DNA from: a virus
Taxonomy: Duplodnaviria; Caudoviricetes
Reading direction: 5' to 3' (one strand)
Length of the DNA stretch: 64,000 nucleotides
IMG/VR virus record: IMGVR_UViG_3300014205_000170
Location: 320,001 to 384,000 of that record
Part shown: one piece after another, positions 22,290-30,765 of the stretch
How the letters are laid out: every line of letters begins with the position of its first letter
Numbering within the stretch: position 1 is the stretch's first letter
Notes under the pieces: model-generated
Database searches by the model: none
Told to the model about the DNA's origin: nothing
Seen by the model: the letters and a program-made list of their open reading frames with translations, nothing else
Position numbers and translations under genes: made by a program

Positions 22290-23642
22290 ATGAAAACAGA
22301 TAATAAATACAAAATAGATATGCCACCACCAACGATAAGTGGTAAATTACATATGGGTCACGCTTTTTCTTATACACAAATGGATTTTATAGCGCGATAT
22401 CAACGAATGAAAAATAAAGAGTTGATTTACCCATTTGGTTATGATAACAATGGAATACCAACAGAAAAGTTTGCTTACAAAAAAAGAATAACAGATACAC
22501 AAAAGATAATCGAACTTTCAAATGAAACTTCTAAAATGTATATGGAATTTTTCAATAATATAAATATGGGGTTTTCTAATCATAGTTATAACACATTTGA
22601 TAAGCTTTCCACTGAAATTGCCTTACTGTCTTTTTATGACCTCAAAGAGAAAGGGTTGCTTTATAAAGGAAAAGAAAATTATTCTTTTTGTACTTCTTGT
22701 AATAAATCGATTCCTAATTCTGAAATTGAAAATAATAAACACATTAGAGATAATGGTGATATTATTGAAAAAGAAGGGGAAGGTTATTTTATTAAAACCA
22801 AAGACTTTAAACAAGAACTTATAGAACAAATTGAAAAAATAGAATGGAAACCTGAAAAATTCAAGAATAGAATTTTAAGTTGGATTAATGATATGGATAG
22901 AGATTGGTCAATTGCTAGACGCAGAGATTATGGAATTTCAATTCCAGGAGAATCTGAACTAAAGTTTGATACATGGTTTACCTCTTCTTTAACTCCTCAA
23001 ATAGCATGGGCATCTCATACCGGTATTGCTTCTTTAGAATGTCCTATTTTTGATTTAAGATTTCAAGCACATGATATTATTAGTACTTGGGCGCTATATA
23101 CCATCATTAAATCTTATCACCACAATAAACAAATACCATGGAAACAGATTATTATCACTGGACATGCGCTTGATAAAAATGGTGATAAACTTGCAAAGAG
23201 TAAAGGAAATTGTACCACCACTGATTATTACATAAAAGAATTTGGTGGAGAAGGAATAAGATATTGGGCAGCTCAAACTCAAATTGGAACCGATACATTA
23301 TTAGATGATGAAACAATGAAAAATTGTAAAAAGCTTATGATTAAACTTAAAAATGCATATAAATTCATAGAGTTTCAAAAATCCAAAGAATGGCTTGGTT
23401 TCAATAAAGAGAAAGAAATTGAGTGGGGAACAATTAAAATAAAAATAGAAGAATATTTTGAACAAGGAGATTGGGCAAAAGCATTTGAAGAATTGTTTAA
23501 TTTCTTCTGGAAAAGATTTTGCGATATTTTTATTGAAGATTCAAAAAAAGAGAGTTGTTCACAAAGCTTAGAGCTAATTTTAAATGAAATGATGATTTAT
23601 TGGCAAATTTTCTTCCCAAAAATTCAAGAAAACATAAAATAA
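22290..23642 (+). CDS. valS: Compact valyl-tRNA synthetase lacking the CP1 editing domain and C-terminal coiled coil
   Basis: DMPPPTISGKLHMGH (HIGH), DWSIARRR.YG, FDTWFTSS, QAHDII..W, KLAKSKGN (KMSKS); Val leader upstream; only 450 aa. Confidence 0.8.
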   Translation: MKTDNKYKIDMPPPTISGKLHMGHAFSYTQMDFIARYQRMKNKELIYPFGYDNNGIPTEKFAYKKRITDTQKIIELSNETSKMYMEFFNNINMGFSNHSYNTFDKLSTEIALLSFYDLKEKGLLYKGKENYSFCTSCNKSIPNSEIENNKHIRDNGDIIEKEGEGYFIKTKDFKQELIEQIEKIEWKPEKFKNRILSWINDMDRDWSIARRRDYGISIPGESELKFDTWFTSSLTPQIAWASHTGIASLECPIFDLRFQAHDIISTWALYTIIKSYHHNKQIPWKQIIITGHALDKNGDKLAKSKGNCTTTDYYIKEFGGEGIRYWAAQTQIGTDTLLDDETMKNCKKLMIKLKNAYKFIEFQKSKEWLGFNKEKEIEWGTIKIKIEEYFEQGDWAKAFEELFNFFWKRFCDIFIEDSKKESCSQSLELILNEMMIYWQIFFPKIQENIK

Positions 23643-23697: not shown

Positions 23698-23757
23698 TTT
23701 GTTTTATTGAAACTTTACCTTAAATTTGACGTTAGAATATAAAATTGTACTATTTAT
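23698..23757 (+). promoter_or_regulatory. Stacked putative promoters of the tRNA-array leader
   Basis: TTTG(23698)-N19-TAAATTTG(23721); GAAAC(23709)-N16-CGTT(23730); CTATTTAT(23750). Confidence 0.55.
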
Positions 23758-23826: not shown

Positions 23827-23928
23827 ATGAAAAATGTAAATACATACACGGTTAATACACTAAGACAATTAGTGTTAGAACAACTTATAGAAAGTTGTCC
23901 AGCTGGGATATGTTCGTTTACAAGTTAA
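23827..23928 (+). CDS. Mixed-codon attenuator leader peptide MKNVNTYTVNTLRQLVLEQLIESCPAGICSFTS
   Basis: 33 codons; ACG, CTA, AGA, TTA, GAA, CTT and ATA match downstream tRNA anticodons. Confidence 0.7.
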   Translation: MKNVNTYTVNTLRQLVLEQLIESCPAGICSFTS

Positions 23929-23984
23929 TTATATATAACTAAACGTTCTTCAAGAACCCCGGCTTTAAAAGGTCGGGGTTTTTT
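23901..23984 (+). promoter_or_regulatory. Attenuator of the 11-tRNA array
   Basis: Terminator AACCCCGGCT(23955-64)/GGTCGGGGTT(23971-80) plus T-run; AGCTGGG(23901-07) pairs with CCCGGCT(23958-64). Confidence 0.75.
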
Positions 23985-23998
23985 GTTTTATTGATATT

Positions 23999-24070
23999 GC
24001 CTTATTAGCTCAGTTGTAAGAGCGCTCGTTTCGTAAACGAGAGGTCATCAGGTCGAACTGATATGAGGCT
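23999..24070 (+). tRNA. tRNA-Thr(CGT), atypical T-loop
   Basis: Acceptor GCCTTAT/ATGAGGC; anticodon arm CTCGT-TTCGTAA-ACGAG; T-loop GTCGAA. Confidence 0.75.
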
Positions 24071-24081
24071 CAAAAAAATAT

Positions 24082-24168
24082 GCCTTCGTGGTGAAATTGG
24101 ACAGAGACACAAGGGTCTTAAAAACCCTCGGATTTAATTCCATGCGGATTCGAGTTCCGCCGAAGGTA
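24082..24168 (+). tRNA. tRNA-Leu(TAA)
   Basis: AGGGT-CTTAAAA-ACCCT; long variable arm. Confidence 0.9.
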
Positions 24169-24181
24169 CAAAAAAAGAGAA

Positions 24182-24349
24182 ATGGGAAAAGTAGAAAAGA
24201 AAAAATTAAGATTACAAGAAAGGATTCAAACTTTAGAAAATGAATTAAGAACTTCTTTGACAAAAAAAACATCTGATGTAAAAGAAATCAATGTTGCTGT
24301 TCATCAAAGAAAAATTTATGATTTAAAATTAGAATTACAAAAAATGTAA
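24182..24349 (+). CDS. Small coiled-coil hypothetical protein (55 aa; not in ORF track)
   Basis: MGKVEKKKLRLQERIQTLENELRTSL...QKM fills the gap between tRNAs. Confidence 0.55.
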   Translation: MGKVEKKKLRLQERIQTLENELRTSLTKKTSDVKEINVAVHQRKIYDLKLELQKM

Positions 24350-24355
24350 CAACAC

Positions 24356-24429
24356 GCCTTCGTAGCACAACGGATTAGTGTCTCTGTTTTCTAAACAGGT
24401 GGGTGGAGGTTCGAATCCTCTCGAAGGTA
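24356..24429 (+). tRNA. tRNA-Arg(TCT)
   Basis: TCTGT-TTTCTAA-ACAGG; GGTTCGAATCC T-arm. Confidence 0.85.
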
Positions 24430-24449
24430 CAAATGGTTCTTTGACATAT

Positions 24450-24534
24450 GCCAGAATGGTGAAATCGTGTAGACACACCATCCTCAAAAGATGGCGCTAT
24501 AAAAAGCGTGAGAGTTCGAATCTCTCTTCTGGTA
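24450..24534 (+). tRNA. tRNA-Leu(CAA)
   Basis: CCATC-CTCAAAA-GATGG; long variable arm. Confidence 0.9.
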
Positions 24535-24539
24535 CAATA

Positions 24540-24614
24540 GCTCCCTTAGCTCAGCTGGTTAGCAGCATCAGACTCATAATCTGAGGGTCGTTGGTTCGAG
24601 CCCAACAGGGAGCA
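24540..24614 (+). tRNA. tRNA-Ile2/Met(CAT)
   Basis: TCAGA-CTCATAA-TCTGA; paired G1-C72, so not an initiator; Ile2 versus Met unresolved. Confidence 0.85.
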
Positions 24615-24619
24615 CAAAT

Positions 24620-24704
24620 GTTACGGTATGCAAACTGGCTGAAGCACCTAGATTTTCAATCTAGTTTCGAAAGAAAATTGCAGGTTCGAACCCCGTCCGT
24701 AATA
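24620..24704 (+). tRNA. tRNA with Glu(TTC) anticodon and long variable arm
   Basis: CTAGA-TTTTCAA-TCTAG; 15-nt variable region with TTTC-GAAA-GAAA hairpin. Confidence 0.75.
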
Positions 24705-24709
24705 CAAAT

Positions 24710-24784
24710 GGCCACATAGCTCAATCGCGTTGGAGCAGGATGCTTATATCATCAAGGTTGGGAGTTCAAATCTCTCTGTGGCTA
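24710..24784 (+). tRNA. tRNA-Ile(TAT)
   Basis: GATG-CTTATAT-CATC; acceptor GGCCACA/TGTGGCT. Confidence 0.85.
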
Positions 24785-24797
24785 CAAAAAAATAAAT

Positions 24798-24879
24798 GCT
24801 CCGTTGGCGGAATGCAGACGCACTTGGCTTAGGACCAAGCTCTCGAAAGGGAATGAAGATTCGAATTCTTCACGGAGTA
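24798..24879 (+). tRNA. tRNA-Leu(TAG)
   Basis: CTTGG-CTTAGGA-CCAAG; long variable arm. Confidence 0.85.
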
Positions 24880-24959
24880 CAAAATTGTTCTTTGAATATT
24901 TGAAATACATGTTATTTTAGAAATATAGTGTGTATAACATTTTTTGTCTATTTATAATC

Positions 24960-25421
24960 ATGAGAAATGATATAATAAAACAAAAAAAAATAATTTTGAA
25001 ATTAATAAATGAAAATAGACCAAAATCATTTATTTGTAAGTTTTTAGATTGTAGACCTCTTACGTTAGATAATTATTTAAAAAAGTGGAACATAAATTAT
25101 GTTGGGAATAAAGGAGGAAAGGGATATAAAATTTCACCGATAAAAAAAACAGCTATTCAATATATGAATAGCACTGGACATATAAGTTCTTATAAATTAG
25201 GGAAAAAACTTATAGAAGATGGATTAAAAGAAAAAAAATGCGAATGTTGTAATTTAACAAAATGGATAAATAAAGACATACCTTTAGAATTACATCACAA
25301 AGATGGAAATAGGTTTAATAATGAATTACAAAATTTACAATTATTATGTCCTAATTGTCATGCTTTAACTGAAAATTATGGTAGCAAAAATAAAAAAAAT
25401 AAAAATGGCCCATTCGTCTAG
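24960..25421 (+). CDS. HNH endonuclease
   Basis: CECC...LELHHKDGNRFNN.LQNLQLLCPNCH; ATG 24960 preferred over GTG 24930. Confidence 0.85.
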   Translation: MRNDIIKQKKIILKLINENRPKSFICKFLDCRPLTLDNYLKKWNINYVGNKGGKGYKISPIKKTAIQYMNSTGHISSYKLGKKLIEDGLKEKKCECCNLTKWINKDIPLELHHKDGNRFNNELQNLQLLCPNCHALTENYGSKNKKNKNGPFV

Positions 25422-26028: not shown

Positions 26029-26442
26029 ATGAAAAAATTTCTGTTAATATTTTTTATAGTTTTAAGTTTAGCGTGCAAATCTCAAACTAAAAATTTGTGG
26101 CAAAAAATTCCAGATGACGCAAAACATGTTTATTCTGGTGTGATAATTACAATGGTAACTGGTGATTTAGTTTATAAATATTCAAAAGGAAGAACAGGAT
26201 TAGCGGTAGGAGTTGGTTTTTTATCAGGAGTAACCGCAGGAGTGGCAAAAGAATTGATATGGGACAAGTGGATGGGAAAAGGCGTTCCGAGTAAGTGGGA
26301 TGCATTTAGTACTGCGTGGGGAGCAGGAATAGGCACTATATCACTTAGGGTAATGATAGATGTTAGAGAACGAAAGCAGTATGATGAATACTCAATAGAA
26401 AAATTAGGTAAAAAGAAAAAAAGAAGACATAGAAATGGTTAA
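26029..26442 (+). CDS. YfiM-like putative lipoprotein/membrane protein
   Basis: Signal peptide with LAC; D..KH, G..KE..D and D....WG pattern. Confidence 0.55.
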   Translation: MKKFLLIFFIVLSLACKSQTKNLWQKIPDDAKHVYSGVIITMVTGDLVYKYSKGRTGLAVGVGFLSGVTAGVAKELIWDKWMGKGVPSKWDAFSTAWGAGIGTISLRVMIDVRERKQYDEYSIEKLGKKKKRRHRNG

Positions 26443-26515
26443 CATAACAATTAATATTCAACAACAACAGCAACAACAAACTCTAAATAAGGGTTCCGGA
26501 ATTGCTTTGTCTTGA
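26435..26515 (+). CDS. Gln7 attenuator leader peptide MVNITINIQQQQQQQTLNKGSGIALS
   Basis: CAA CAA CAA CAG CAA CAA CAA at 26459-26479; ATG overlaps the end of the upstream gene. Confidence 0.85.
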   Translation: MVNITINIQQQQQQQTLNKGSGIALS

Positions 26516-26571
26516 CGTTATTAATTTAACAAATTACAAAAAGCCTGGAACTTAAAGTTTCAGGCTTTTTT
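26492..26571 (+). promoter_or_regulatory. Attenuator of the tRNA-Gln/glnS operon
   Basis: Terminator AAGCCTGGAACT(26541-52)/AGTTTCAGGCTT(26556-67) plus T-run; GGTTCCGG(26492-99) pairs with CTGGAACT(26545-52). Confidence 0.8.
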
Positions 26572-26577
26572 ATTTAT

Positions 26578-26648
26578 TGTCCTATAGTGTAATGGCAGCA
26601 CAAGAGATTTTGACTCTCTTAGTCTAGGTTCGAGTCCTAGTGGGACAA
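26578..26648 (+). tRNA. tRNA-Gln(TTG) 1
   Basis: AGAGA-TTTTGAC-TCTCT; T1-A72. Confidence 0.9.
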
Positions 26649-26653
26649 CATAT

Positions 26654-26725
26654 TCCTCGTTGGTCTAATGGCAATGACGTTGGTTTTTGACACCAAAAGT
26701 GGTAGTTCGATTCTATCACGAGGAA
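26654..26725 (+). tRNA. tRNA-Gln(TTG) 2
   Basis: TTGGT-TTTTGAC-ACCAA. Confidence 0.9.
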
Positions 26726-26730
26726 CAAAT

Positions 26731-26803
26731 TGCTCCATAGTATAATGGCCTATTATCGCTGCCTTTGAAGCAGAAGACCTTGGTTCGATTCCAAGTGGAG
26801 CAT
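26731..26803 (+). tRNA. tRNA-Gln(TTG) 3
   Basis: CTGC-CTTTGAA-GCAG. Confidence 0.85.
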
Positions 26804-26810
26804 CTAAAAT

Positions 26811-26883
26811 TGCCTTATAGTATAATGGTTATTATTCTCGTTTCTGAGACGATGAGATGTTGGTTCGAATCCAGCTTAGGTAA
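26811..26883 (+). tRNA. tRNA-Gln(CTG)
   Basis: TCGT-TTCTGAG-ACGA; one T-T mismatch in acceptor stem. Confidence 0.8.
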
Positions 26884-26906
26884 CAAACAAAAAAAATCGT
26901 AACTTT

Positions 26907-27392
26907 ATGGTTATGAAAACGAGAGAAGAACAAATAAAAAATGCTACAGTTCAAATAGGCAATACTGTTAAGGTTAATAAGCGATTATTGGATAAAAAAC
27001 TATCAATAGAACTTTTTAAAGAAACTGCGGAAGAATTATTTAAAGAACATTCAGAATATTATAAGCCAAAACATTTTAATACTATTGTTTATAAATTGTT
27101 TTCTATGAAAAACGTTTTTGTTGCAACAGCTCCATGTGAAGATTTTTTTGATAAAAAAGGAAAATGGATTACAGAAATACCAACTCGTTCACACAGAAGC
27201 TTAGAAGCATTTGATATTATTGATTCTATTCAAAATTATTTAAATGAAGGAGCATTGGTATATTTATATACATTTTATAGTATGAAACAGGATATTGTTA
27301 CAGGTTATAGAAATAATGATTTTACAGACACAATAGTAGAACCAAATGTTGATACATATTGGTGGAGATTAATAGTAAAAAAAGAAGAATAA
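26907..27392 (+). CDS. Hypothetical protein in the Gln operon
   Basis: 161-aa ORF between tRNA-Gln cluster and glnS. Confidence 0.65.
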   Translation: MVMKTREEQIKNATVQIGNTVKVNKRLLDKKLSIELFKETAEELFKEHSEYYKPKHFNTIVYKLFSMKNVFVATAPCEDFFDKKGKWITEIPTRSHRSLEAFDIIDSIQNYLNEGALVYLYTFYSMKQDIVTGYRNNDFTDTIVEPNVDTYWWRLIVKKEE

Positions 27393-27394
27393 TT

Positions 27395-29011
27395 ATGAAT
27401 TTTATTGAAGAAAAAATAATTGAAAAAGGAAATGTTGAGAAATTTAAACTTAGATTTCCACCAGAAAATAATGGCCACCTTCATGTTGGTCATGCGAAAT
27501 CCATATGTCTTAACTTTGGGTTGTCTGAAAAATACAATAGACCTTGTAATTTAAGATTTGATGATACAAATCCTTCTAATGAATCAGATGAATATACAAA
27601 GTCTATTATAAAAGATATTGAATGGTTAAATTATAAGCCGGCAGAAATTTTACATACTTCTGACTATTTCTCTTTTCTTTATGAATCAGCCATAAAATTA
27701 ATCAAAAAAGGATTGGCATATGTTGACGATTCAACATCAGAAGAAATTGCAAAATTAAAAGGTACTCCAACTATGTCTGGAAAACCGTCTCCTTATTATT
27801 CGCGTACCGTTGAAGAAAATTTAGATTTGTTCGAAAGAATGAAAAACGGAGAGTTTACAGAAGGTTCAAAAATTCTTAGAGCTAAAATTGATATGGCTTC
27901 TCCTAATATGATTTTAAGAGACCCAGTGATGTATAGAATTATAAATACAACACATCATCATACAGGAGATGTTTGGAAAATTTATCCAATGTATGATTTC
28001 GCACATCCTTTATCAGATTATACTGAAGGAATCACAGATTCTTTATGTACTTTAGAATTTGAAGTTCATAGACCACTTTATAATTGGTTTTTGGAAAATT
28101 TGAATTTACCAAATCCATTGCCGGAAGAAACAGAATTTGCTCGTTTAAACATTGAATATACAGTACTTTCAAAACGTAAATTAAAAAGATTGGTTGAAGA
28201 GAAATTTGTTTCAGGATGGGACGACCCAAGAATGCCAACCATTTCAGGATTAAGAAGAAGAGGATATACTCCAACAGCTATTAAAGATTTTTGTGAACGA
28301 GTTGGCGTTACAAAAAAAGAATCTTTAATAAGTTATTTGCTTTTAGAAGAATGTTTAAGAAATGACTTAAATAAATCTACCAATAGATTTATGGGAATAA
28401 TGAATCCTGTTAAAATAACAATTACAAACTGGAATAATGGCGTTGAAATGGTTGAAGTTGAGAACAATCCAGAGGATGAAACTGCCGGAAAAAGATTAAT
28501 TCCTTTTTCAAAAGAATTGTGGATTGATAGAGACGATTTTAGAGAAGAAGCTGATAATAAATTTTTCAGATTAAAATTAGGGAGTGAAGTTAGATTGAAA
28601 GGTGCTTATGTCATAAAAGCAGAAGAAGTGATTAAGAATGGAGATGTTATTACGGAAATAAAATGTACATATGACCCTTTAACGAAATCTGGATTAGGCA
28701 CTAACAGAAAAGTTAAAGGAACAATTCATTGGGTTTCTTGCGAACATGGAGTTAAGGCAGAAGTTAGAGAATATTCAAAATTATTCACTCATATCACACC
28801 GGATAAGTCTGAAGATGATTTTGTAAACTATATTGATGCCAACTCTTTGGTTATTAATAACAATGCAATATTTGAACCGGCTGTTTTAAATTGTATTCCT
28901 GGAAAACCAGTTCAAATGATAAGAGTAGGTTATTACGTAAGAGATACGAATGATGAATCTCTTATTTTTAATAAGACCGTGTCTCTTAAGGAGGATAAGT
29001 ATAAATCATAG
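27395..29011 (+). CDS. glnS: Glutaminyl-tRNA synthetase
   Basis: RFPPENNGHLHVGHAKS, NLRFDDTNP, IYPMYDFAH, LCTLEF, VLSKRKL, WDDPRMPT, KVKGTIHWV; start at ATG 27395. Confidence 0.95.
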   Translation: MNFIEEKIIEKGNVEKFKLRFPPENNGHLHVGHAKSICLNFGLSEKYNRPCNLRFDDTNPSNESDEYTKSIIKDIEWLNYKPAEILHTSDYFSFLYESAIKLIKKGLAYVDDSTSEEIAKLKGTPTMSGKPSPYYSRTVEENLDLFERMKNGEFTEGSKILRAKIDMASPNMILRDPVMYRIINTTHHHTGDVWKIYPMYDFAHPLSDYTEGITDSLCTLEFEVHRPLYNWFLENLNLPNPLPEETEFARLNIEYTVLSKRKLKRLVEEKFVSGWDDPRMPTISGLRRRGYTPTAIKDFCERVGVTKKESLISYLLLEECLRNDLNKSTNRFMGIMNPVKITITNWNNGVEMVEVENNPEDETAGKRLIPFSKELWIDRDDFREEADNKFFRLKLGSEVRLKGAYVIKAEEVIKNGDVITEIKCTYDPLTKSGLGTNRKVKGTIHWVSCEHGVKAEVREYSKLFTHITPDKSEDDFVNYIDANSLVINNNAIFEPAVLNCIPGKPVQMIRVGYYVRDTNDESLIFNKTVSLKEDKYKS

Positions 29012-29669: not shown

Positions 29670-29978
29670 GTGGAGCAGATAAATAATTTCCAACCTAAAG
29701 TAGTGTGGGATAATAATTTTTTTTTAAACAAACTTACAAGGGAAGTTTTTATAGAAAAGATTTTTTTGCACATAAAATATGCTGTTTTAAATGAATGGAA
29801 ACGAGAAAATGGAATACTTTCTTTTTCTATAAAAACAAAATGTGATTTTTGTAAAAAAGAATCAACTGCAATTTTTGATTATGGTTCTAAAAAGAGTAAT
29901 AAAACATTAGGAGTTTGTATTTATTGTGATGAATTAATTATATGTTGGAGTAAATATTTTAATGGAAGAATCAACTAA
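29670..29978 (+). CDS. Hypothetical zinc-ribbon protein
   Basis: CDFC...CIYC. Confidence 0.5.
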   Translation: MEQINNFQPKVVWDNNFFLNKLTREVFIEKIFLHIKYAVLNEWKRENGILSFSIKTKCDFCKKESTAIFDYGSKKSNKTLGVCIYCDELIICWSKYFNGRIN

Positions 29979-30765
29979 ATATTCACGTACATTACACTTT
30001 CCAATTTCGAAGGGAACAACTTCGGATGATAGAATATTGTCCGCTGGGTACTTAGATATTGTTTCTAAGATGAATCTAATTGTTACTGAAAAATTAGATG
30101 GTCAAAATGATTGTTTAAAAAAAGATGGAGTTTTTGCGAGGTCACACACAGCTCCTAGTGCGCATCCTTGGGATAAACCTTTGTGGGATAGATGGAATTT
30201 AATTAAGAACGATTTAAAAGACCTTGAAATATTTGGAGAAAACATGTATGGAATACATTCAGTGGCTTATAGTAAACTTGAATCATTTTATTATGTTTTT
30301 GCAGTAAGAGAAAAAGGAGTTTGGCTTTCTTGGGAAGAAGTTAAATTTTATGCAGCAATGTTGGATTTTCCAGTTGTACCTGAGTTAAAATATGATAATA
30401 CACTTTCTTCATTTGTTAATCCTAAAAAATCAGAGAATGATTGTTTGAAAGAATGGTTACAATCGTTTTTAAAAATGGATTGGGAAGATTACACAAACAC
30501 TTCCGGAGCATTAGGTGGTTATAATCCAAAAAACAATAACAAGCCAGCATGTGAAGGTTTCGTAATTAGAAATTCAACTGCATTTAAAACAAATGATGGA
30601 ATTATAAAAACGCAACCAAATGAATTTCGCAATGTGTTTAAATTAGTTAGAGGAGGCCATGTTCAAACAGATGAACATTGGACTAAAAATTGGCAACCAG
30701 CTACATTAATTAACGGTGAAAAATATGGTTGGTATGGATATGAAAACAATTATAAAAATAAATAA
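29962..30765 (+). CDS. ATP-dependent RNA ligase
   Basis: KYSRTLHFP.S.G, TEKLDG (motif I), FGEN, FYYVFAV, EGFVIR, K.VR..HVQTDEHW. Confidence 0.85.
   Translation: MEESTKYSRTLHFPISKGTTSDDRILSAGYLDIVSKMNLIVTEKLDGQNDCLKKDGVFARSHTAPSAHPWDKPLWDRWNLIKNDLKDLEIFGENMYGIHSVAYSKLESFYYVFAVREKGVWLSWEEVKFYAAMLDFPVVPELKYDNTLSSFVNPKKSENDCLKEWLQSFLKMDWEDYTNTSGALGGYNPKNNNKPACEGFVIRNSTAFKTNDGIIKTQPNEFRNVFKLVRGGHVQTDEHWTKNWQPATLINGEKYGWYGYENNYKNK

Follow-up and report, generated by a model that had tools for sequence, protein, structure and literature searches.

The 64,000-nucleotide (nt) stretch analyzed here, referred to below as the window, comprises bases 320001–384000 of the virus record IMGVR_UViG_3300014205_000170 (Caudoviricetes). 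Within it, a short open reading frame (ORF) containing seven consecutive glutamine (Gln) codons and an intrinsic terminator precede four genes for transfer RNA (tRNA) for glutamine, an ORF of 161 amino acids (aa) and glnS, which encodes glutaminyl-tRNA synthetase (GlnRS). We conclude from the sequence and from folding models that this arrangement is probably a ribosome-mediated (leader-peptide) transcription attenuator, which would read the supply of charged tRNA-Gln and gate the phage tRNA-Gln genes and glnS. A preliminary description of the region had proposed such an attenuator as a self-limiting supply loop for tRNA-Gln and its synthetase. Every element that it listed was found at the stated place, and both structure prediction and 13 related loci lend good support to the core of the proposal. 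Three side points need amending: the role suggested for the 161-aa protein, the translational coupling to the upstream gene, and the association of the attenuator, which is with the tRNA-Gln genes more than with glnS.

The virus record, from an uncultured phage, is 518,809 bp long, with direct terminal repeats, about 55 tRNA genes and a G+C content of 30%. Among named relatives, the uncultured phages LR745206.1 and LR756502.1 (635 and 642 kb) are the nearest, with approximately 73% nucleotide identity in glnS. The host is probably a member of the Bacteroidota, because the nearest cellular GlnRS sequences are from Flavobacteriales and because relatives bear promoters of the Bacteroidota type, TTTG followed by TAnnTTTG.

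The leader ORF contains the run of six CAA codons and one CAG codon noted in the preliminary description (Table 1). Gln represents 3.4% of the codons in the long ORFs of this genome but 7 of 25 codons in the leader, and the probability of finding at least seven Gln in 25 codons is 1.4e-5. The run is also the only occurrence of at least six Gln within seven codons in all six frames of the 519-kb genome, and it is located about 100 nt upstream of the four tRNA-Gln genes, which are the only ones the genome contains. Given this probability, the uniqueness of the run and its proximity to these genes, the Gln run and its position exceed chance expectation. The leader ATG (26435–26437) overlaps the end of an upstream 137-aa ORF whose stop codon is at 26440–26442, as originally noted. 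The translational coupling suggested on that basis is not borne out by comparison, since the overlap is unique to this genome; in relatives the leader is preceded by a tRNA gene or by a promoter of its own. The upstream ORF matched no family in Pfam or PHROGs.

Three alternative hairpins can be drawn from the leader RNA. Minimum free energy (MFE) folds of the full RNA in the absence of a ribosome give a long hairpin, the protector, which encloses the whole Gln run in its 5′ strand, together with the terminator, a stem of 15 pairs (−18.3 kcal/mol) followed by a T-run. When the bases covered by a stalled ribosome are masked and the 3′ arm of the terminator is not yet made, 26491–26499 and 26504–26508 pair with 26540–26553. 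This predicted antiterminator of 14 pairs (−15.9 kcal/mol, z-score about −2.4) consumes the 5′ arm of the terminator. With a ribosome placed at the stop codon, the antiterminator pairing is blocked in the fold and the terminator forms. In these models the layout is that of the classical four-region scheme, with a protector (1:2), an antiterminator (2:3) and a terminator (3:4). The spacings given in the preliminary description also proved accurate: the antiterminator strand (region 2) starts at 26491, 12 nt past the last Gln codon, and 6 nt separate the end of the T-run (26571) from the first tRNA gene (26578). Only two strong terminators were found on the plus strand between 23500 and 29300, one of them being that of the Gln leader, and there is no plus-strand terminator between the tRNA-Gln genes and the end of glnS.

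The region thus contains a short ORF with a start and a stop codon ahead of the putatively regulated genes, enriched for the amino acid of its cargo; an intrinsic terminator between leader and cargo; a protector hairpin carrying the regulatory codons in its 5′ strand; and, as a prediction only, an antiterminator that has one strand in common with the terminator and cannot form once a ribosome completes the leader. An Rfam scan of the window at gathering thresholds returned tRNA matches only, with no T-box and no curated leader family, a group that includes His_leader, Trp_leader, Thr_leader and Leu_leader. The sequence elements, their predicted alternative pairings, the conservation of these and their exclusive association with tRNA-Gln are what the analysis shows.

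From this architecture we infer that the leader is translated, that ribosomes can stall on it, that read-through is regulated, and what this would do for the phage. In the proposed mechanism, transcription would enter from upstream and a ribosome would translate the 26-codon leader. With Gln-tRNA(Gln) plentiful, the ribosome would pass the seven Gln codons and region 2 and reach the stop codon at 26513; the antiterminator would be blocked, the terminator hairpin (26538–26570) would form, and RNA polymerase would halt 6 nt before the first tRNA gene. With Gln-tRNA(Gln) scarce, the ribosome would stall on the Gln run and melt the protector, and region 2, lying 12 nt beyond the last Gln codon, would for that reason stay free. 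It could then pair with the 5′ arm of the terminator, allowing read-through into the four tRNA-Gln genes, the 161-aa ORF and glnS. In the absence of a ribosome, the protector would hold region 2, making termination the default. The tRNAs and the charging enzyme so produced would relieve the stall, and the loop would therefore be self-limiting.

To place the element in a wider context, we compared it with loci from other phages and from cells. A search with GlnRS yielded 9 viral-contig loci, 2 phage-type metagenome loci and 2 GenBank phages, and a second search, anchored on the leader sequence alone, added two contigs (L172 and L177). The controls were 158 cellular glnS loci, consisting of 78 cellular-type metagenome loci and 80 loci from Bacteroidota genomes. 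Among the 14 phage-type glnS loci, the window included, 11 carry the unit, defined by a short ORF with 4–7 Gln codons, a terminator and 2–4 tRNA-Gln genes. The remaining three comprise one cut by a contig end, one with neither leader nor tRNAs and one with a different tRNA array. In L172 and L177, tRNA-Gln comes directly after the leader and terminator, and no glnS was found in the DNA examined, which extends about 5 kb downstream in L172 but ends about 160 nt after the last tRNA in L177. The phage loci with a Gln-rich leader and terminator thus all have tRNA-Gln next (13 of 13), starting 8–64 nt after the hairpin, and glnS is also present in 11 of the 13. The gap between the terminator and the first tRNA is 6–12 nt in most loci.

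Neither a Gln-rich leader nor tRNA-Gln was found upstream of glnS in the cellular controls (0/78 metagenome loci and 0/80 Bacteroidota genome loci). Because all 13 Gln leaders precede tRNA-Gln, it is the tRNA-Gln genes, and not glnS, that the attenuator accompanies, judged by this gene order, and the synthetase appears to be dispensable cargo. No such leader or terminator accompanies the tRNA-Gln gene of Prevotella phage Lak-A1; the device is therefore not universal in Bacteroidota megaphages. Five cellular glnS loci (L037, L038, L051, L081 and L146) have a tRNA-Gln(CUG) downstream of glnS on the same strand, without a leader and, in three of them, at a distance of no more than about 100 nt. 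Here the two genes are linked in another way.

The homologous short ORFs at the 12 other phage loci have 4–7 Gln in 15–22 codons. None of the aligned loci departs from the ATG, CAA and CAG replace each other, and the peptide outside the Gln run varies between lineages, while the run itself is kept in all 13 leaders. Of the 12 related loci aligned, 10 have insertions and deletions in the leader that are multiples of 3 nt; two have a 1-nt change that shifts the stop codon a few codons downstream, and in these the ORF still crosses region 2, as it does in the window. The conserved ATG, the CAA/CAG exchanges and the 3-nt indels are signs of selection on translation.

The RNA structures are conserved as well. 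In the relatives, region 2 takes the form of a 7-nt motif, which includes the stop codon of the leader or lies right next to it and whose complement is found at the top of the terminator 5′ arm. In ribosome-free folds this motif is held by a complementary stretch directly 3′ of the Gln run, and an outer stem closes around the run; an analogous protector hairpin is present in all relatives. An antiterminator was predicted in 10 of 10 loci folded, taking up 7–11 of the 10–11 nucleotides of the terminator arm, with z-scores between −1.1 and −5.1. Pair counts, sliding of pairing partners and 500 shuffles were carried out on an alignment of 12 sequences (A3). The terminated state, with protector and terminator counted together, is 79.7% paired, compared with 25–44% when the partners are slid, and its covariation score lies above that of all shuffles (0/500). 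Changes on both sides occur at 7 of 11 terminator pairs and at two pairs in the outer stem of the protector. For the antiterminator, 80.2% is paired, compared with 13–56% after sliding.

We also exchanged antiterminator strands and terminator arms between loci. The window's own duplex (−15.2 kcal/mol) is the best of 11 by both row and column, whereas crosses between the window and the Gln units of relatives give only −3 to −9 kcal/mol. According to these energies, the window re-creates the same switch logic with wholly different strand sequences that again pair. The swap is decisive for the window only; among the relatives, cross-pairing is as good as own pairing because of the motifs they have in common.

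The position of the element within transcription units differs between loci. L007 and L172 have a perfect two-box Bacteroidota promoter that ends 36 nt before the leader ATG, which places the terminator inside the transcription unit. In L013 a −7 box occupies the same position, and in L011 one lies 8 nt further upstream. By their motifs, these four loci appear as units that stand alone, each with promoter, leader, terminator and tRNA-Gln. In five relatives the leader starts about 35 nt after a tRNA-Pro gene, and the gate is therefore inside a longer tRNA operon. The nearest upstream two-box match in the window precedes the first leader/terminator unit of the region (Table 1) and is a weak candidate for the start of a long transcript reaching the Gln attenuator; no further two-box match was found on the plus strand between 23728 and 33974. 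A scan for sigma-70-type promoters gave 24 sites, compared with 26.9 expected.

Several other explanations would account for part of these observations. A stalled ribosome senses charged tRNA only, so that shortage of the amino acid and shortage of the tRNA look alike, and classical attenuators are read as amino-acid sensors. The switch could thus be real but report glutamine (nitrogen) starvation of the host, as a nutrient sensor of the phage. We consider this unlikely, as tRNA-Gln and GlnRS cure no glutamine shortage, the unit contains no gene for glutamine synthesis or uptake, and the leader strictly co-occurs with tRNA-Gln genes. The Gln codons might also carry no specific information, with the element acting as a general gauge of translation activity or as a timing device. 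A protector/antiterminator design answers to ribosome position whatever its cause, and the unit lies inside a long tRNA operon with several gates. This interpretation seems very improbable to us given that 13 of 13 leaders retain the Gln run, and only this feature, while other parts of the peptide vary, and that sibling leaders bear other amino acids, matching their own arrays.

Leader translation is itself inferred, and CAA repeats are simple sequence; the terminator might accordingly be constitutive and leaky, damping transcription from upstream, with the CAA stretch serving as a slippage repeat or spacer and the ORF being incidental. The chances of this are slimmer again: ORF, frame and ATG are kept in 13 diverged loci that differ by CAA/CAG exchanges and 3-nt indels, the alternative pairings are conserved, and several relatives have only tRNA genes or a promoter upstream, hence no messenger RNA operon to end. 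We attach next to no probability to an independent promoter that overlaps the leader and terminator and drives the tRNA-Gln genes and glnS, leaving the terminator without control. Phage-specific promoters of unrecognized sequence are conceivable, but neither a sigma-70-like nor a Bacteroidota-type match occurs in 26435–26577, and the T-run is separated from the first tRNA by only 6 nt (8–12 nt in relatives). A gap of 6–12 nt, as most loci have between terminator and first tRNA, is too short to hold a promoter, which also speaks against the possibility, raised in the preliminary description as the contrary case, of independent transcription from just downstream of the terminator.

Some observations weigh against a leader-peptide attenuator. 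In the window, the leader has no promoter motif closer than 200 nt, and the Bacteroidota promoter motif is no commoner than chance, so that only single positions are suggestive. The CAA repeats may have arisen by slippage. The mechanism would also depend on which RNA polymerase transcribes the region and on how closely the host couples transcription and translation. Finally, the antiterminator is mostly invariant in the family; one pair has changed on both sides, and the shuffle control was not exceeded. The support for the antiterminator is therefore its conserved complementarity, the folding energies and the one independent redesign, that of the window.

A further reading, which we regard as possible though doubtful, is that the attenuator serves as a damage sensor in a counter-defence circuit of the phage. 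The host would deplete or cleave tRNA-Gln, or phage takeover would destroy the host tRNAs, and ribosomes would then stall on the Gln run. The stall would switch on replacement tRNA-Gln genes together with the phage's own charging enzyme.

Table 1. Features of the Gln unit and of related leader units (window positions unless marked otherwise)
Feature	Position	Strand	Remarks
Match to two-box Bacteroidota promoter	23698–23728	+	Nearest upstream match; before the first leader/terminator unit of the region
Thr/Leu/Arg/Glu/Ile leader	23827–23928		33 codons; terminator 23952–23983, then eight tRNA genes (23999–24880)
Upstream 137-aa ORF	26029–26442	+	N-terminal signal/lipoprotein-like segment
Leader ORF	26435–26515	+	26 codons and stop; stop codon at 26513
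Seven tandem Gln codons (putative sensor)	26459–26479	+	6 CAA, 1 CAG; read from sequence
Protector (1:2) hairpin, predicted	26449–26526	+	From MFE folds; encloses the whole Gln run in its 5′ strand
Region 2, predicted antiterminator 5′ strand	26491–26508	+	Pairs with 26540–26553, the 5′ arm of the terminator
Intrinsic terminator (3:4), predicted hairpin and T-run	26538–26571	+	Hairpin 26538–26570, 15 pairs, −18.3 kcal/mol
Three tRNA-Gln(UUG) genes	26578–26649, 26654–26726, 26731–26804	+	ARAGORN and Rfam agree
tRNA-Gln(CUG) gene	26811–26884	+	ARAGORN and Rfam agree
161-aa ORF	26907–27392	+	Between tRNA array and glnS
glnS, glutaminyl-tRNA synthetase	27395–29011	+	538 aa; true start is the ATG at 27395
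Asn/Ser/His/Phe/Thr-rich leader and terminator	419729–419903 (outside window)		Followed by Phe, Phe, Ser, Ser, Asn, Asn and His tRNAs
Lys unit	G000:C1:422198–422329 (outside window)		Five tandem Lys codons and terminator, then four tRNA-Lys(UUU)

The cargo corresponds to the list in the preliminary description, namely three tRNA-Gln(UUG), one tRNA-Gln(CUG), the 161-aa gene and glnS. The Rfam scores of the four tRNA-Gln genes are 46–65 bits. The synthetase is a Glutamine--tRNA ligase by the TIGR00440 equivalog (654.8 bits against a cut-off of 425.8) and by Pfam (E = 1e-97), with the complete set of three domains (PF00749, PF03950 and PF20974) found and both class I signature motifs readable. 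Its nearest cellular counterparts, from Chryseobacterium, Flavobacterium and Riemerella (Flavobacteriales), are 55–58% identical.

The 161-aa protein had been put forward as a candidate accessory or anti-defence factor. Among 5.8 billion proteins it matched only itself; it belongs to no Pfam or PHROGs family, and its Atlas model has low confidence (predicted local distance difference test score, pLDDT, 0.45) and no meaningful structural neighbour. In relatives, the slot before glnS is mostly empty, and is otherwise filled by an HNH endonuclease in one case and by a pair of unrelated small ORFs in another. By sequence comparison, the gene is best described as a lineage-specific ORFan insert in a variable slot and not as a conserved component, and we assign it no role in the switch. 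The accessory or anti-defence function was dropped, with nothing in this ORFan or its variable slot marking it. The slot in L013 holds a longer ORF (611–1486) that is HNH-like by eye only.

A gene for an RNA ligase family protein (PF09414, E = 3e-22) is located at 29962–30765, 1 kb downstream of glnS. Next to tRNA supply genes, a function in tRNA repair is possible for this ligase.

Further units with a leader and a terminator before a tRNA array occur in the same genome (Table 1). In the unit whose leader begins at 23827, the leader codons ACG, CTA, AGA, TTA, GAA, CTT and ATA match the downstream tRNAs Thr(CGU), Leu(UAG), Arg(UCU), Leu(UAA), Glu(UUC), Leu(AAG) and Ile(UAU). LR745206.1 and LR756502.1 have Pro/Asp leaders before Pro/Asp tRNA arrays, and an antiterminator was predicted for each sibling unit. 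In a crude test of whole-leader enrichment, the Gln units gave P values of 1e-5 to 3e-7, compared with 0.003 for the Phe/Ser/Asn/His leader, about 0.05 for Lys and 0.32 for the Thr/Leu set. The sibling units carry no statistical weight for the argument, and the Gln units are by far the clearest, consistent with the rank given to the Gln unit in the preliminary description. The Pro/Asp leaders located upstream of the Gln unit in L001 (2744–2851) and L002 (2661–2756) contain Gln at 5 of 34 and 3 of 30 codons, respectively. The amino acid of the downstream unit, Gln, may therefore already be sampled at the operon's first gate.

Other features of the region concern its tRNAs and the neighbouring genes. 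Rfam detects a tRNA at 23999–24070 (56.4 bits, anticodon loop CGU, Thr) that ARAGORN missed. Although tRNAs for Glu and Gln normally have a short variable loop, several here are 82–86 nt long, at 24620–24705 in the window and in L001 (3917–4001), L002 (3918–3999), L003 (2151–2232) and L010 (2246–2329). A long variable arm is visible by eye in the tRNA-Gln of L001 and the tRNA-Glu of the window; L002, L003 and L010 are included by length only. Elsewhere the genome also has similarly oversized tRNAs for Lys, Asn, His, Trp and Thr. At 22290–23642 a 450-aa class I synthetase is nearest to ValRS (346 bits against an equivalog cut-off of 738); its matches skip profile positions of about 245–458, and the editing (CP1) domain appears to be missing. 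An ORF between two tRNA blocks (24960–25421) has a weak HNH_3 match below cut-off (E = 0.0026; 17.8 bits against 24.8), and its end overlaps the start of a tRNA-Glu gene (25407) by 15 nt.

The Gln unit resembles the classical attenuators of the Enterobacteria. The leaders hisL, trpL, pheL and leuL likewise consist of a short ORF with a run of codons for one amino acid, seven regulatory codons being present in both hisL and the Gln leader, and likewise form mutually exclusive protector, antiterminator and terminator hairpins among which the position of the ribosome decides. However, the cargo of the classical leaders consists of enzymes for amino-acid biosynthesis on a bacterial chromosome, whereas the phage unit precedes tRNA genes and a synthetase. 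The two share no relation in sequence or Rfam family, and the molecule that the phage unit would sense is its own product.

Attenuation of synthetase genes has precedents. The pheST attenuator of E. coli, with its pheM leader, is a classical attenuator of a synthetase gene. Attenuators of trpS and leuS have been predicted in Streptomyces (PMC1262725), in a paper that also mentions T-box riboswitches. The pheST, trpS and leuS units likewise have cognate leader codons before a synthetase gene but lack tRNA genes. In the phage unit, by contrast, the leader is associated with the tRNA genes and the synthetase appears dispensable, and none of the 158 cellular glnS loci has the unit. T-box riboswitches of Firmicutes also choose between terminator and antiterminator before synthetase genes according to the charging of one tRNA. 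A T-box, however, binds the uncharged tRNA directly and without translation, whereas in the phage unit a ribosome would read an ORF, and there is no T-box sequence or Rfam match.

As for the cargo, mixed tRNA-protein operons such as thrU-tyrU-glyT-thrT-tufB of E. coli, and the tRNA cluster of phage T4, are co-transcribed tRNA arrays, sometimes with a gene for a protein of the translation apparatus. None of these is known to have a leader-peptide attenuator. A full-text literature search found no paper on leader-peptide attenuation of tRNA genes or of phage tRNA or synthetase genes. The mechanism is thus known from the his, trp and phe leaders and from synthetase genes, while tRNA genes as phage cargo are new as far as this search shows.

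If our reading is true, the Gln unit would be the first case found of classical attenuation applied to tRNA genes. It would provide direct feedback on decoding capacity, the cargo being the very tRNA that is sensed, and within only about 140 nt it would be a natural gauge of how much of one charged tRNA is present. It is the cleanest of these units for experiments, since a single amino acid is involved, the codons are seven in tandem and 13 natural variants exist. Should the element in addition be a damage sensor, the sibling gates (Lys, Phe/Ser/Asn/His and others) and the RNA ligase would amount to genome-wide, on-demand tRNA replacement in huge phages. Large phages carry many tRNA and synthetase genes, and the Gln unit bears on how these are controlled. 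It may thereby offer a handle on why phages carry tRNAs at all, whether for codon supply, for replacement after host shut-off or for escape from tRNA-targeting defences.

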